DNA of 19,757 nucleotides. It comes from Candidatus Iainarchaeum sp. (GTDB taxonomy: Archaea > Iainarchaeota > Iainarchaeia > Iainarchaeales > GCA-2688035). Position numbers and translations under genes: made by a program. The stretch lies in the NCBI GenBank assembly GCA_028713935.1, contig JAQTNI010000024.1:1-19757 (forward strand). Direction: 5' to 3'. How positions within the stretch are numbered: position 1 is the stretch's first letter; every line of letters starts with the position of its first letter. Positions 9,405-12,527 of the stretch are shown piece after piece. The notes under the pieces were generated by a model. That model worked only from the letters and a program-made list of their open reading frames with translations, made no database searches and was not told where the DNA came from.

Positions 9405-10430
9405 ATGCGGGAGAATGAAAATAAAAATTTTCACATCGGGCTGGTTTTTAACAGGCGGAAAAAAAACATTAATCCCGACAGCATTGAAGCTGAATACGAT
9501 TCCTATGAAACAGTCAATGCCATAAAAAAAGCAATAGAGGAAAATGGCCACAGTGTCGGGCTTATCGAAGCTGACGAAAAAATTTTTGAAAGGCTGAAAA
9601 AATCAAAAATTGATTTGGCATTTAATATTGCCGAAGGCCCGAAAATAAACAGCAGAGAATCCCTTGTCCCGCTTTTGCTTGAAATGCTTGGCATTCCTTA
9701 TACAGGCTCTTCCCCTTTAACGCTTGCTGTGGGCCTTGACAAAGCGAAAACAAAAGAAATCCTGCTCGCGAATGGAATAAGGACGCCTGCTTTCCAGGTT
9801 TTCAAAAATCCGGAAGAAAAATTGAGGAAAAGCCTTGAATTTCCCCTGATTGTAAAGCCTGTCTGCGAGGGTTCAAGCATGGGCATTACAAACGACTCTG
9901 TTGTTGCAAATGAGAAGGAGCTGAGGCGGCAATTGAAATTTGTTTTTGAAAAATTCAATGAACCTGCTCTTGTTGAGGAATTTATTGAAGGACGGGAATT
10001 CAGCGCTGCTATTATCCAGAACGGGCAATTAAGTGTGTTGCCTATTGTTGAGTTTGATTTTGGCTGCCTGCCGGAACACGCCAAAAAGATAGATTCTTTT
10101 GAGGCAAAATGGGTCTGGGATACAGCAGAAAAGCCACTGCCCTTGTATATCTGCCCTGCAAGGATAACTGAACAGGAAAAGGAAAAAATTGAGCAGATTT
10201 CAATCGCTGCGTTTGAGGCGCTTGACTGCAGGGACCTTTGCAGAATTGACCTAAGGGAAAAAAACGGAAAATTTTTTGTTTTGGAAATAAACCCTTTGCC
10301 TGGCCTGAATCCGGATATAAATAGCAATTCTGTTTTTCCAACTGCCATAAGGGCATCAGGAATGGGATTCAGCGAAACCATAGGCAAAATTATTGAAAAT
10401 GCGCTGAAGAGGAATGGCTTATGCGGATAG
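9405..10430 (+). CDS. ATP-grasp ligase, D-Ala-D-Ala-ligase-like family (paralog 1)
   Basis: Ddl-family architecture. The N-domain reads IGLVFN...YDSYETVNAIKKAIEENGH...DLAFNIAEG...LLEMLGIPYTGS. The central part reads DKAKTKEILLANGIRTP...FPLIVKPVCEGSSMGI. The catalytic region reads ALVEEFIEGREFS...VLEINPLPGL. I start at ATG 9405 (M30 of the track ORF), with GGGGAG at 9385-9390 upstream. Confidence 0.85.
   Translation: MRENENKNFHIGLVFNRRKKNINPDSIEAEYDSYETVNAIKKAIEENGHSVGLIEADEKIFERLKKSKIDLAFNIAEGPKINSRESLVPLLLEMLGIPYTGSSPLTLAVGLDKAKTKEILLANGIRTPAFQVFKNPEEKLRKSLEFPLIVKPVCEGSSMGITNDSVVANEKELRRQLKFVFEKFNEPALVEEFIEGREFSAAIIQNGQLSVLPIVEFDFGCLPEHAKKIDSFEAKWVWDTAEKPLPLYICPARITEQEKEKIEQISIAAFEALDCRDLCRIDLREKNGKFFVLEINPLPGLNPDINSNSVFPTAIRASGMGFSETIGKIIENALKRNGLCG
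9966..10005 (+). repeat. 40-nt segment identical to 10961-11000 (copy 1)
   Basis: gctcttgttgaggaatttattgaaggacgggaattcagcg, compared base by base. The flanking bases differ on both sides. Confidence 0.95.
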
Positions 10431-11494
10431 CTGTTCTCCACAGGGATGAACGGGCAAAAGAAAAATACCCTCTCGATTTTGAGGGGAGGATTGAAGCTGA
10501 GGACACTGCAAGCATTATTAGGGCGCTTGCAGCGCTTGGACATGAAGTATTGCCTGTATGCGCTTCTGCAAATGCAATTTTTTCACTGAAAAAAGCAAAG
10601 CCCGATATAGTATTCAATGCCTGTGATGATGGCCTGGAAAGCGATTCGCTTCTTGAACCGCATGTCGCAGCAATTATTGAAGCAATTAGACTGCCTTATA
10701 CGGGAAACAATTATCTGGCATTGGGATTGTGCATGAACAAAGCGCTGGCAAAGCAGATTCTTTTGCAGAAAGGCATTCTCACCCCGGATTACCAATTGTT
10801 TGAAACAGGAAGTGAAAAGCTTTCTGATTTGTCTTTTCCTCTCATAGTAAAACCAGCCCATGAGGATGGCAGCATTGGAATAAAACAGGATTCTGTTGCA
10901 GAAAACATTGATGAGCTTAGGGCAAAAGTTAAAAATATTATTAATAATTACAAGCAGGCCGCTCTTGTTGAGGAATTTATTGAAGGACGGGAATTCAGCG
11001 TTTCAATGATTGGCAATGAAAAAATAGATGCTTTTCAAATAGCAGAAATTGTTTTTGAGGAAAGCCTTGAAAAAAAAATGAGGATTTATTCTTATGAATC
11101 TAAATGGCTCAAGGAAAGCCCGCATTACAAGAAAGTCATTGACAACTGCCCTGCGGATATTGACAGGAAAACAGGAGAAAAAATCACTCAGACAGCAATT
11201 AAGGCCTTCAGGGCTCTTGGCTGCCAAGGTTATGGGCGGGTTGAATTCCGGCTCAGGGATGAAGAATTGCATGTTATTGAAGTTAACCCGAATTCTGACT
11301 TGTCAGAGGATGCGGAATTGGCAAAATCCGCTGCTCTTTCCGGCATTTCTTACAAGGAACTTATCCAAAGGATAGTGATGCTCGGTTTGAAAAGGGGCAA
11401 AAGCAAAGGAGGCGTGCAAAGTGAACAGGTCTATTGCAGACCACAAAGCAAGGCAAGAAACAATTACTCTGCAAAAAGAATCGCAGTTGCCTGA
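10421..11494 (+). CDS. ATP-grasp ligase, D-Ala-D-Ala-ligase-like family (paralog 2)
   Basis: Same architecture as paralog 1: RIAVLH...IIRALAALGHEV...DIVFNACDDG...IIEAIRLPYTGN; NKALAKQILLQKGILTP...FPLIVKPAHEDGSIGI; ALVEEFIEGREFS...VIEVNPNSDL. The start overlaps the upstream stop (ATGcggaTAG, 10421-10430), with GAGG at 10409-10412. Confidence 0.85.
   Translation: MRIAVLHRDERAKEKYPLDFEGRIEAEDTASIIRALAALGHEVLPVCASANAIFSLKKAKPDIVFNACDDGLESDSLLEPHVAAIIEAIRLPYTGNNYLALGLCMNKALAKQILLQKGILTPDYQLFETGSEKLSDLSFPLIVKPAHEDGSIGIKQDSVAENIDELRAKVKNIINNYKQAALVEEFIEGREFSVSMIGNEKIDAFQIAEIVFEESLEKKMRIYSYESKWLKESPHYKKVIDNCPADIDRKTGEKITQTAIKAFRALGCQGYGRVEFRLRDEELHVIEVNPNSDLSEDAELAKSAALSGISYKELIQRIVMLGLKRGKSKGGVQSEQVYCRPQSKARNNYSAKRIAVA
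10961..11000 (+). repeat. 40-nt segment identical to 9966-10005 (copy 2)
   Basis: Same 40-mer, 995 nt downstream of copy 1 and in the equivalent codon positions of the paralog (ALVEEFIEGREFS). Confidence 0.95.
11406..11412 (+). promoter_or_regulatory. Shine-Dalgarno-like AAGGAGG for the aminomutase gene, embedded in the upstream CDS
   Basis: AAGGAGG lies 8 nt before GTG 11421. The aminomutase frame is closed by TGA at 11388-11390, so GTG 11421 is the only plausible start upstream of the conserved N-terminal EWKKFL...EEL region. Confidence 0.55.
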
Positions 11495-12527
11495 GTGGAA
11501 AAAATTTCTTTCGGAAAGCATTACAAGTGCGGAAGAATTAGCCAAATTTTTGGATGTGGATAAACAAGAAGTAAAAGAAGTGACAAGCGTTTATCCAATG
11601 AAGATAAACAGGTATTTTTTGGGCCTGATTAAGCAGAAAAATGATGCTCTTTGGAGGCAAAGCATACCAAGCATTGAGGAACTTAAGCAAAATGTCTGCG
11701 TTGAAGACCCTTTGCACGAGGAACAGCAAAGCCCTGTTAAAGGCCTTGTCCACAGATACCCTGACAGAGTTCTGCTGCTTGTAAGCAACAATTGCGCAAT
11801 GTTCTGCAGATTCTGCACAAGAAAAAGAAAAATTGGGCATTCTGAAACCATAAAAAGGGAGAATATAATTGAAGGAATTGAGTATATCAGGAAACACAAG
11901 GAAATCCGCGATGTCCTGCTTTCGGGCGGAGACCCTTTGCTGCTGGATGACAAAGAGCTAGACTGGATTCTGGGAAAAATAAGGGCAATAAAACACGTGG
12001 AAATAATCCGGATTGGAACAAGAGTGCCCTGCTCATTGCCAATGAGAATCACAAAAGAATTATGTGAAGTGCTGAAAAAGTATCATCCACTTTTTGTAAA
12101 TATGCATTTTAATCATTCTCAAGAAATTACAGAAGAAACAAGGAAGGCGTGCAATTTGCTTGCGGAAGCAGGAATTCCACTTGGAAACCAGACAGTCTTG
12201 CTCAAAGGCGTTAATGATTCGGGGGAAATAATCGCAAAGCTTAATAAAGAGCTTTTGAAAATGAGGGTAAGGCCATACTATTTGTACCAGGCAGACCTTG
12301 TAAAGGGGACAAACCATTTCAGGACCAAAACAGAGCTTGGCATAAAAATAATTGAGTCCCTCAGGGGCCACATAAGTGGTCTTGCTGTTCCGCACTTCGC
12401 CATAGATGCCCCAGGCGGAGGCGGAAAAATCACAATTGCACCGAATTATGTCTTGGAAAAAACAGACAAAAAAATAATCCTGCGAAATTACGAGAACAAG
12501 TGCTTTGAATACCCTGAACCGGAATAA
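11421..12527 (+). CDS. kamA: Lysine 2,3-aminomutase (KamA-family radical SAM/PLP enzyme), short form
   Basis: Near-collinear with clostridial KamA as I recall it: DPLHEE..SPV.GL.HRYPDRVLLL, CAMFCRFCTRKR (CxxxCxxC), RDVLLSGGDPLLL, HVEIIRIGTR, YHPLFVNMHFNH, GIPLGNQTVLLKGVND, RVRPYYLYQADL, AIDAPGGGGK (PLP Lys). It ends about 50 aa earlier than the clostridial enzyme, so there is no C-terminal Cys cluster. Confidence 0.9.
   Translation: MNRSIADHKARQETITLQKESQLPEWKKFLSESITSAEELAKFLDVDKQEVKEVTSVYPMKINRYFLGLIKQKNDALWRQSIPSIEELKQNVCVEDPLHEEQQSPVKGLVHRYPDRVLLLVSNNCAMFCRFCTRKRKIGHSETIKRENIIEGIEYIRKHKEIRDVLLSGGDPLLLDDKELDWILGKIRAIKHVEIIRIGTRVPCSLPMRITKELCEVLKKYHPLFVNMHFNHSQEITEETRKACNLLAEAGIPLGNQTVLLKGVNDSGEIIAKLNKELLKMRVRPYYLYQADLVKGTNHFRTKTELGIKIIESLRGHISGLAVPHFAIDAPGGGGKITIAPNYVLEKTDKKIILRNYENKCFEYPEPE

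Follow-up and report, generated by a model that had tools for sequence, protein, structure and literature searches.

What becomes of β-lysine in an archaeon that encodes the aminomutase predicted to make it together with two ligases of the D-alanine–D-alanine ligase (Ddl) fold? This question is raised by contig JAQTNI010000024.1 of Candidatus Iainarchaeum sp. (assembly GCA_028713935.1), a member of the DPANN phylum Iainarchaeota, which was analysed over a stretch of 19,757 nt (hereafter the window). Three overlapping genes on its forward strand form one operon and encode, in this order, two ATP-grasp enzymes (referred to as G1 and G2) and a short radical S-adenosylmethionine (SAM)/pyridoxal 5′-phosphate (PLP) enzyme of the KamA family. 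To our knowledge, β-lysine has only two well-established physiological fates, namely acetylation to an osmolyte and attachment to elongation factor P (EF-P). The cassette points to a third, ATP-grasp-dependent fate, and with moderate confidence we favour the explanation that this single operon ligates β-lysine by ATP-grasp chemistry to yield a small amide.

The linkage of the three genes was examined in related genomes. A scan with a G1 profile of one genome per species revealed relatives in at least 596 species genomes, and when 1.84 billion representative proteins were searched exhaustively, 1,235 clusters (50% identity) matched G1 at E ≤ 1e-30. Among the 47 top species genomes in which G1 was flanked by at least 4 kb on either side, a second Ddl-like gene (G2) lay beside G1 in 44, a KamA gene lay near G1 in 39 (gap median 1.5 kb, maximum 2 kb), and a small GNAT acetyltransferase was encoded in 37. 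A G2 profile run against metagenomes revealed the same linkage, and G1, G2 and KamA occurred together in six loci inspected by hand (from Woesearchaeota, Nitrososphaerota, Kryptonia, Altiarchaeales and Nezhaarchaeales). Carriers of G1 relatives included the archaeal Bathyarchaeia, Aenigmatarchaeota, Thermoplasmatota, Methanosarcinales, Methanotrichaceae, Hadarchaeota, Nitrososphaerales and Promethearchaeum, and the bacterial Kryptonia, Ignavibacteriota, Bacteroidota, Gemmatimonadota, Desulfuromonadales, Planctomycetota, Nitrospinota and Acidobacteriota. The cassette is not specific to DPANN, being found in hundreds of anaerobic archaea and bacteria, and its patchy distribution suggests a widespread cassette that spreads horizontally.

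The same genes were also found fused to one another. KamA and G1 constitute a single open reading frame (ORF) of 736–813 aa in Thermoplasmatota and Hadarchaeota, and the best 120 matches to a KamA::G1 query comprised 95 proteins with KamA at the N-terminus and G1 at the C-terminus, next to 3 in the reversed order. These fusions originated from Thermoplasmatota, Methanocellales, Woesearchaeota, Nanoarchaeota, Spirochaetales and Omnitrophica, and all KamA-fused ATP-grasps that could be typed by motif were of the G1 type. G2::GNAT fusions (PF07478 followed by PF13302, ~510–530 aa) were present in Thermoplasmatota, Methanotrichaceae, Hadarchaeota and the cultured Asgard archaeon Promethearchaeum syntrophicum, and some double-grasp proteins join G1-type and G2-type signatures. 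Because all three kinds of fusion exist, the pairings of KamA with G1, G2 with GNAT and G1 with G2 are tied into one pathway, and the 39 adjacent cases together with the fusions imply that the proximity of KamA and the ligases is not due to chance. The three genes thus very probably work in one pathway, and the unit that an earlier reading of the window (the sequence-only reading, made from the letters without database searches) had proposed from gene packing is kept in relatives. Among the double-grasp proteins, P0361, P0362, P0364, P0396 and P0463 (600–790 aa, two Ddl-like ATP-grasp modules) ranked with the best G1 matches; most proteins of this kind carry EGSS + EGSS signatures and some EGSS + ED(A/G)(G/S).

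The aminomutase contains the Pfam domains Radical_SAM and LAM_C, and the only NCBIfam model it passed was that of the KamA family as a whole (TIGR00238, 326 bits against a cut-off of 199.2). The best-scoring model was that of AblA (TIGR03820, 492.8 bits against a cut-off of 525.4), of which positions 363–417 were left unmatched, and arginine 2,3-aminomutase scored 345 bits. Two other identities were rejected: glutamate 2,3-aminomutase, with 450.5 bits against a cut-off of 650 and an Asp/Asp instead of a Lys/Asn pair in the pocket, and EpmB, with 264.7 bits against a cut-off of 369.3 and the lysine-binding Asp pair kept. The motifs CAMFCRFC, SGGDPLLL and GGGGK, which the sequence-only reading had picked out as KamA hallmarks, were all found. 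Alignment to the clostridial enzyme (2A5H, E = 1.2e-115) further showed that C125/C129/C132, R134, D293 (in YQADL), D330 (in AIDAPGGGGK) and K337 are kept, and among 56 aligned cassette KamAs the CxxxCxxC motif, R134, D293 and D330 were invariant, with K337 present in 55. The sequence-only reading had named these two Asp residues as ligands of the lysine ε-amino group, and correctly so, since Asp293 and Asp330 bind lysine in lysine 2,3-aminomutase and are replaced by Lys and Asn in glutamate 2,3-aminomutase (PMC3965090). From this pocket, the window enzyme is predicted to produce β-lysine.

The cassette enzymes nevertheless differ from the clostridial one. Only 32 residues follow K337 in the window KamA versus ~79 in the 416-residue clostridial chain, leaving ~48 C-terminal residues absent, and Cys268 is replaced by Ser (D, N, S or K across the cassette family). 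This C-terminal region, together with the Zn ligand Cys268, forms the Zn-binding and tetramerisation region of 2A5H. As a shortened C-terminus and a residue other than Cys at position 268 were common to all 56 aligned proteins, the alignment sets the cassette KamAs apart as a short subfamily of their own that has a lysine-type pocket.

Both ligases matched the Pfam domain Dala_Dala_lig_C (E = 1.1e-35 for G1 and 1.1e-34 for G2) but fell under every curated Ddl, Van and archaeal-Ddl cut-off of NCBIfam. Specifically, G1 and G2 scored 197.4 and 167.3 bits with PRK01372 (cut-off 243) and 165.3 and 147.0 bits with TIGR01205 (cut-off 245.65), while the archaeal pseudomurein Ddl model (cut-off 500) gave 53.5 bits for G1 and did not appear among the best 25 matches of G2. 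AlphaFold models of the two proteins (predicted local distance difference test [pLDDT] of 79.6 and 87.1, respectively) retrieved only Ddl and Van ligases as their best 50 structure matches in the PDB (template modelling [TM] score 0.64–0.87), the best matches of the G1 model being Ddl at TM 0.73–0.8. Sequence searches of solved structures with phmmer likewise put Ddl first, at E ~1e-29 for G1, ~1e-26 for G2 and 1e-42 for the G1-family profile. Residues 330–357 of G2 form a non-conserved tail with pLDDT < 50 that is probably disordered.

To compare residues, 77 G1 and 68 G2 orthologues were aligned to Escherichia coli DdlB (sequence checked against 2DLN). Mean identity was 53% among G1, 42% among G2, 35% between G1 and G2, and 28–32% to DdlB; G1 homologues are 45–55% identical across archaea and bacteria, and the two window proteins share 37% identity. 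G1 and G2 are separate orthologous groups. The ATP/Mg-binding and catalytic residues K97, K144, E180, E187, K215, R255, D257, E270 and N272 are kept in both families, whereas positions governing D-Ala specificity are altered. Tyr216 is replaced by Trp in 75 of the 77 G1 and in all 68 G2 orthologues, Met259 by Arg in both families, and His63 by Glu in G1 and most G2 proteins (Asp in the window G2). G1 additionally carries Asp for Val18, and 4 residues are inserted into its loop for the second D-Ala. In G2, E-D-(A/G)-S replaces EGSS with loss of Ser150, and Gly276, Ser281 and Leu282 have become Asp, Ala and Gly. The positions of Ser150 and Tyr216, a pair that is conserved in true D-Ala–D-Ala ligases (PMC7691350), are therefore occupied by Ser/Trp in G1 and by (Gly or Ala)/Trp in G2. 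Judged from these changes in the D-Ala specificity residues and from the sub-threshold family scores, neither G1 nor G2 is a bona fide Ddl, in line with the sequence-only reading, which had cast them as amide-forming ligases in a context free of murein genes. Mur, pseudomurein and alanine racemase genes were indeed absent from the window, and none recurred as a neighbour in 170 related loci, in surveys by tblastn with cassette queries and ORF clustering that included no Mur-specific queries.

The sequence-only reading had further stated that neither a GNAT acetyltransferase nor a LysRS-like ligase is encoded in the window. Domain and family scans found no GNAT, LysRS-like or Mur gene there, and no hidden GNAT, decarboxylase or MurL-like gene gave a tblastn match below E = 0.6. 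Its claim that the cassette has no known partner enzymes holds for the window alone and fails in most relatives, where a small GNAT belongs to the cassette; acetylation is for that reason usually part of the pathway. The window is a minimal, GNAT-less DPANN version of a cassette that consists of G1, G2, KamA and usually GNAT. This difference follows the type of G2. A ‘FNxCDDG’ subtype is common to the window, its nearest relative (L090), Altiarchaeales, Woesearchaeota, Nanoarchaeota and some proteins of the candidate phyla radiation (CPR), and GNAT was absent in every examinable locus of this kind (about ten), while the ‘C-E-G/S’ subtype is usually accompanied by GNAT. The extra Asp of the ‘DDG’ subtype sits in the loop that carries His63 in DdlB and might accommodate a free rather than an acetylated amine. 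The GNATs of the relatives are 157–185 aa long and gave only generic NCBIfam matches (RimI best though weak, PseH and others) of at most 52 bits; the AblB model was not among the NCBIfam matches listed for them.

The checks that the sequence-only reading had set for its own refutation, on Ddl identity, linkage and EpmB kinship, all favoured it. Taken together, these data suggest the following pathway. KamA would turn L-lysine into β-lysine, as its intact radical-SAM/PLP site and Asp pair indicate. G1, for which about a hundred protein clusters show fusion to KamA, would take β-lysine directly and join it via an acyl-phosphate to a partner as an amide; β-lysine is in our view the likely substrate of G1. 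G2, which elsewhere is fused to GNAT or G1, would make a second ATP-dependent ligation on the same molecule, after which GNAT, where present, would acetylate a free amine. The KamA::G1, G2::GNAT and G1::G2 fusions suggest this order of steps and make it testable. We expect the product to be a soluble, cationic pseudo-peptide of small size, either a di- or tripeptide or a conjugate of β-lysine with agmatine, putrescine, cadaverine or a lysine side chain, N-acetylated in most lineages and unacetylated in the DPANN version of the window. That it is a small soluble amide seems narrowly probable. Its role might be that of a compatible solute or polyamine-like protectant, an osmolyte-like or polyamine-like function being a tentative suggestion that we would not yet favour. 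In anaerobes, such a product may bear on stress tolerance or polyamine-like functions, and G1 and G2 might be of use as biocatalysts that form β-peptides.

The individual enzymes are of known kinds, while their combination into a pathway appears undescribed: no paper describing the cassette was found in a literature search whose coverage did not extend to the older 2009 Iyer/Aravind amidoligase survey, which might mention it. The cassette is not one of murein, EF-P or abl-type chemistry. With Ddl enzymes (DdlA/DdlB, VanA, VanG), G1 and G2 share the fold, the ATP/Mg and catalytic residues and presumably the acyl-phosphate mechanism, but the two are paired with each other and are linked, or fused, to KamA and GNAT instead of to Mur ligases. 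The AblA/AblB pathway to the methanogen osmolyte N-ε-acetyl-β-lysine resembles the cassette in the lysine pocket of KamA, in the acetyltransferase of most relatives and in a plausible stress-solute role; the cassette differs by its shorter aminomutase, its generic GNAT and two extra ATP-dependent ligases, and the window has no acetyltransferase. EpmB and EpmA, in turn, also combine a short KamA-family enzyme devoid of the clostridial C-terminal domain with ATP-dependent joining to an amine, but EpmA is a LysRS paralogue and the cassette ligase an ATP-grasp. Archaea have aIF5A and hypusine in place of EF-P.

Parallels in pathway logic are offered by N-acetylglutaminylglutamine amide (NAGGN; Ngg and AsnO) and N-acetylaspartylglutamate (NAAG; NAT8L and RIMKLA), in which an acetyltransferase and an ATP-grasp likewise make a small N-acetylated di- or tripeptide. 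GNAT is fused to an ATP-grasp in both NAGGN synthesis and the cassette, although the G2::GNAT fusion has the opposite domain order. The cassette ATP-grasps are moreover of the Ddl type and not of the RimK or cyanophycin-synthetase type, there is no conserved amidotransferase, and the β-amino acid would come from a radical SAM enzyme. No Ngg-type family was present among the best 25 of the 41 and 45 NCBIfam matches of G2::GNAT fusions, which were all Ddl or Van. The nearest mechanistic precedent is the PylB/PylC/PylD pathway, where a radical SAM lysine mutase feeds an ATP-grasp and PylC joins the carboxylate of PylB's diamino acid to the ε-amino group of lysine. This likeness is functional only, as PylB belongs to another radical SAM family and rearranges the carbon skeleton, unlike KamA, and the cassette has no PylD-like partner; a PylC chain was not recognised among the sequence matches of G1 and G2 to solved structures. 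The parallels with NAGGN, NAAG and PylB/PylC are analogies drawn from established pathway knowledge, not from homology found here. Finally, the L-amino acid ligases (BacD/YwfE, BL00235) are also stand-alone ATP-grasps that make free di- or oligopeptides, but are much more distant than Ddl: BL00235 (3VOT), the first non-Ddl structure match of G1 and G2, aligned over part of the protein at E = 1e-7 to 1e-14. We know of no L-amino acid ligase that is linked to an aminomutase.

Neighbouring genes in related loci hint at the partner to which β-lysine might be joined. In two Thermodesulfobacteriota/Deltaproteobacteria metagenome-assembled genomes (L083 2837–7449 and L039 5476–10024, no KamA within the locus), genes for a deoxyhypusine-synthase-like protein, agmatinase and pyruvoyl arginine decarboxylase precede G1 and G2 in one operon with 4-nt overlaps, and the same polyamine-gene operon with G1-G2(-GNAT) was found in L029, L047, L069, L032 and L123. 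A Nitrospinae locus (L037) has the gene order PvlArgDC-G2-GNAT-KamA-G1. In Promethearchaeum syntrophicum MK-D1 (L088, chromosome 1843322–1860887), which as a cultured carrier might serve as an experimental system, G1 and G2::GNAT have no KamA within 8 kb, and deoxyhypusine synthase and pyruvoyl arginine decarboxylase genes lie divergently just 5′ of G1. Furthermore, a LysA/FslC-like PLP decarboxylase is encoded inside the cassettes of L001, L103, L044 and L078 (Woesearchaeota-type and Planctomycetota loci). In DPANN loci, proteins of 444–485 aa in which no Pfam domain was found, with weak similarity to the peptide epimerase MurL (31.5 bits), adjoin G1/G2, followed in L001 and L103 by the decarboxylase. 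These flanking polyamine and decarboxylase genes suggest an amine as the partner. An alignment comparison revealed no residue position that separates the G1 and G2 proteins of KamA-linked loci from those of KamA-less loci, so that the agmatine and decarboxylase genes look like suppliers or processors of the amine and not like replacements for β-lysine. The idea that agmatine genes stand in for KamA was accordingly dropped, also because KamA may lie elsewhere in these genomes, and only the association was kept.

Other recurrent neighbours were confined to fewer loci. An APC-family amino acid permease gene lies 5′ of the cassette in 8 Ignavibacteriota/Bacteroidota loci (L066 4202–5620, L086 5671–6864 and similar), and a peptidase M24 gene directly 3′ of KamA was counted in 6 loci by ORF clustering and 10 by tblastn, the checked locus being from Ignavibacteriaceae. 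Both may reflect uptake or turnover of the product, or merely lineage synteny. In a CPR bacterium of the Minisyncoccia (L089), a lone G2-type gene at 8001–8999 (‘DDG’, EDGS, KW) is accompanied by neither G1 nor KamA and is located three genes from an alanine racemase gene.

Several points weigh against the pathway proposed here. The window itself lacks the GNAT that most cassettes carry, and G1-G2(-GNAT) occurs with no nearby KamA in L029, L032, L047, L069, L083 and L088. The lone G2-type genes of CPR bacteria, such as the one near alanine racemase, imply that the ligases are not strictly tied to β-lysine, and this G2 subtype may have a KamA-independent role there. The window G2 has Glu at the position of the Mg-binding Asp257 as well as Ser at 275 and Glu at 282, making its activity less certain than that of G1. 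The KamA of the window stays under the AblA equivalog cut-off and is missing the Zn/tetramerisation C-terminus, and its substrate and the stereochemistry of its product are predictions. No conserved transporter or regulator pointing to an osmolyte role was found. More generally, the evidence for all members comes from sequence, context and models, the product being a prediction, and the window covers 19.7 kb of this genome, so that partners may be encoded elsewhere.

Of the alternatives, attachment of β-lysine and a second residue to a macromolecule has to be weighed first. The acceptor would be an envelope polymer, or else the lysine side chain or C-terminus of a protein, modified either as EpmA would do it (EF-P/aIF5A) or by tailing of the RimK kind. 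It is established that β-lysine is attached in this way on EF-P, deoxyhypusine-synthase-like genes adjoin G1-G2 in several bacterial loci and lie in their vicinity in Promethearchaeum, and the best, albeit weak, match of the GNATs is to the protein N-acetyltransferase RimI; the cassette comes after a Wzz-type kinase and a NusG paralogue in Kryptonia and Ignavibacteria. However, both ligases belong to the Ddl branch, the known members of which are small-molecule enzymes, and not to the RimK or TTL branches, and the trio of deoxyhypusine synthase, agmatinase and arginine decarboxylase is more simply a putrescine/homospermidine pathway. Neither a small ORF nor a candidate target gene is conserved alongside the cassette (a search for a precursor peptide or target yielded only lineage-specific or antisense noise), and searches with EF-P and aIF5A query sequences found no such gene in 171 loci. 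We therefore consider attachment to a macromolecule unlikely. Its specific form, with G1 and G2 as the ATP-grasp equivalent of EpmA, putting β-lysine and a second residue (acetylated in most lineages) on a macromolecular amine, is slightly less likely again; the amine might belong to a lysine in a ribosomal protein or translation factor, or to an envelope polymer. If true, it would amount to a new post-translational or surface modification common to DPANN, Asgard archaea, methanogens and many anaerobic bacteria, and the deoxyhypusine-synthase-like/polyamine neighbourhood would reflect a hypusine-like function.

The two ligases might also build an oligomer or polymer, either oligo-β-lysine or a cyanophycin-like branched polyamide, with one ligase making the backbone, the other adding side groups and GNAT capping the chain. 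Two distinct ligases recall the two active sites of cyanophycin synthetase, yet the match to that enzyme was marginal (E ~0.005), the ligases contain no primer-binding or extra domains, and Ddl-type enzymes normally carry out single turnover ligation. β-Lysine oligomers are known from streptothricins, and the GNAT of L006 weakly matched streptothricin acetyltransferases (20–29 bits). The peptidase M24 just 3′ of KamA in at least six loci could fit turnover of a polymer, but no dedicated depolymerase is conserved across lineages. On this evidence polymer synthesis is quite improbable. There is a still slimmer chance that the cassette makes a bioactive secondary metabolite, that is, a β-lysine peptide antibiotic or signal with GNAT providing self-resistance. 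While β-lysine and ATP-grasp ligases both occur in antibiotic pathways and the patchy distribution suggests horizontal transfer, the cassette is small and uniform, occurs in hundreds of anaerobes from distant lineages, the genome-reduced DPANN among them, and comes with no exporters, regulators or tailoring enzymes, and a G2::GNAT fusion suits a biosynthetic step better than resistance. Lastly, incidental adjacency of ordinary D-Ala–D-Ala or pseudomurein ligases to an aminomutase for lysine catabolism or an abl-type osmolyte is hardly credible: public annotations often read ‘D-alanine-D-alanine ligase’ (or ‘ATP-grasp domain protein’, both misleading for wall-less archaea), the ligases share their fold and catalytic residues with Ddl and the lone G2-type gene lies near an alanine racemase, but the Ddl cut-offs are missed, the Tyr216/Ser150 signature is lost, no Mur, pMur, KamD/E or AblB genes were found (in window scans and, for AblB, among the relatives' GNATs), and the adjacency is fixed by fusions.

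The operon on which the preferred reading, ligation of β-lysine into a small amide, is built was also examined for its gene starts (Table 1). An ORF check reproduced the three packed, overlapping genes at the coordinates given by the sequence-only reading, including the short overlap between the G1 stop and the G2 start, which in relatives measures 4 nt (L005) or 23 nt (L090). L090 has the same G1-G2-KamA order, with identities to the window proteins of 74% (G1), 64% (G2) and 69% (KamA). The G1 ORF opens at TTG 9318, but ATG 9405 matches the N-terminus of the L090 protein. At the G2/KamA junction, the internal AAGGAGG reported earlier is present as a single copy in the window; its count alone is not significant because 2.5 copies are expected by chance. 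The motif, its 8-nt spacing, the GTG and the 74-nt overlap are, however, all kept in L090, and the N-terminal helix of KamA, the alignment of which to 2A5H requires a start at or before residue 22, makes GTG 11421 a credible start as well. An alternative start at TTG 11487, giving an 8-nt overlap with G2, may be used.

Table 1. Positions of the cassette genes and their signals in the window, and of the MurL-like family in related loci
Feature	Position	Strand	Remarks
G1	9405-10430	+	ATP-grasp amide ligase of the Ddl fold, the highly conserved one of the two; 341 aa with ATG 9405 as start
G2	10421-11494	+	second, more divergent Ddl-fold ATP-grasp ligase, 357 aa, ‘FNxCDDG’ subtype
KamA-family radical SAM/PLP aminomutase, short	11421-12527	+	368 aa counted from GTG 11421
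TATA-like box TTTATATG	9334..9341	+	in A/T-rich spacer 5′ of G1; candidate archaeal promoter element, weak evidence
G1 stop/G2 start overlap ATGCGGATAG	10421..10430	+	10 nt, ATGcggaTAG; read as translational coupling
Shine-Dalgarno-like AAGGAGG	11406..11412	+	inside G2 3′ end, 8 nt before GTG 11421
G2 3′ end/KamA 5′ end overlap	11421..11494	+	74 nt; G2 side is the low-confidence tail
MurL-like family (444-485 aa)	L001 9087-11800; L103 7984-10685; L007 5862-8671; L038 9046-10392		28-32% mutual identity

The ‘single TATA-like box’ that had been claimed upstream of G1 found little support. The 320-nt spacer 5′ of G1 has ~34% G+C and holds further A/T boxes, and TTTATATG at 9334 is 1 of 3 matches in the window versus 1.09 expected, a number that was reached in 20 of 200 shuffles; the box is indistinguishable from chance in such a spacer. 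Its position would put the transcription start 3′ of ATG 9339, weakly favouring ATG 9405 as the start of G1. A sigma-70-type promoter scan of this A/T-rich archaeal spacer was as uninformative as the TATA-like box, and Rfam scans for riboswitches and other RNA elements in the window and 8 bacterial loci gave tRNAs only.

The window holds further genes besides the cassette. Convergent with it lie genes for a 296-aa radical SAM protein that fits no specific family (12562–13452, – strand), a 213-aa spermidine-synthase-like (SpeE-like) class I methyltransferase (13504–14145, – strand; PF01564, 35.6 bits) and a 148-aa membrane protein (14142–14588, – strand), the last overlapping the methyltransferase gene by 4 nt. 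None of these three has a conserved place next to the cassette in relatives; the radical SAM gene, the methyltransferase gene and SufS were rejected as cassette parts, as they are not conserved beside it, in L090 or in other loci. A mechanosensitive channel of the MscS type, matching all three MscS Pfam domains (18347–19480, + strand), was likewise discarded as an argument for a solute role, since it is 6 kb away with no evidence of linkage to the cassette. Upstream, 639–5006 (+ strand) encodes a 1455-aa secreted Cys-rich protein with ~100-aa repeats (‘TPP..TK..G.P’) and a faint Ig-like match, and 5156–6256 (+ strand) a 366-aa secreted protein in which a Gly-rich linker is combined with a Cys-rich C-terminal region and a membrane anchor; the two probably serve DPANN as surface or attachment proteins. 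Finally, 16120–18309 (+ strand) encodes a 729-aa fusion of an AsnB-type amidotransferase/asparagine synthase (residues 1–460) to a Dph6 diphthine–ammonia ligase (residues 481–702; TIGR03679, 232.9 bits against a cut-off of 197.3). This protein is not conserved with the cassette and reaches 114 bits against the 570-bit cut-off of the NAGGN amidotransferase model, and the fusion could give diphthamide amidation its own glutamine-derived source of ammonia.

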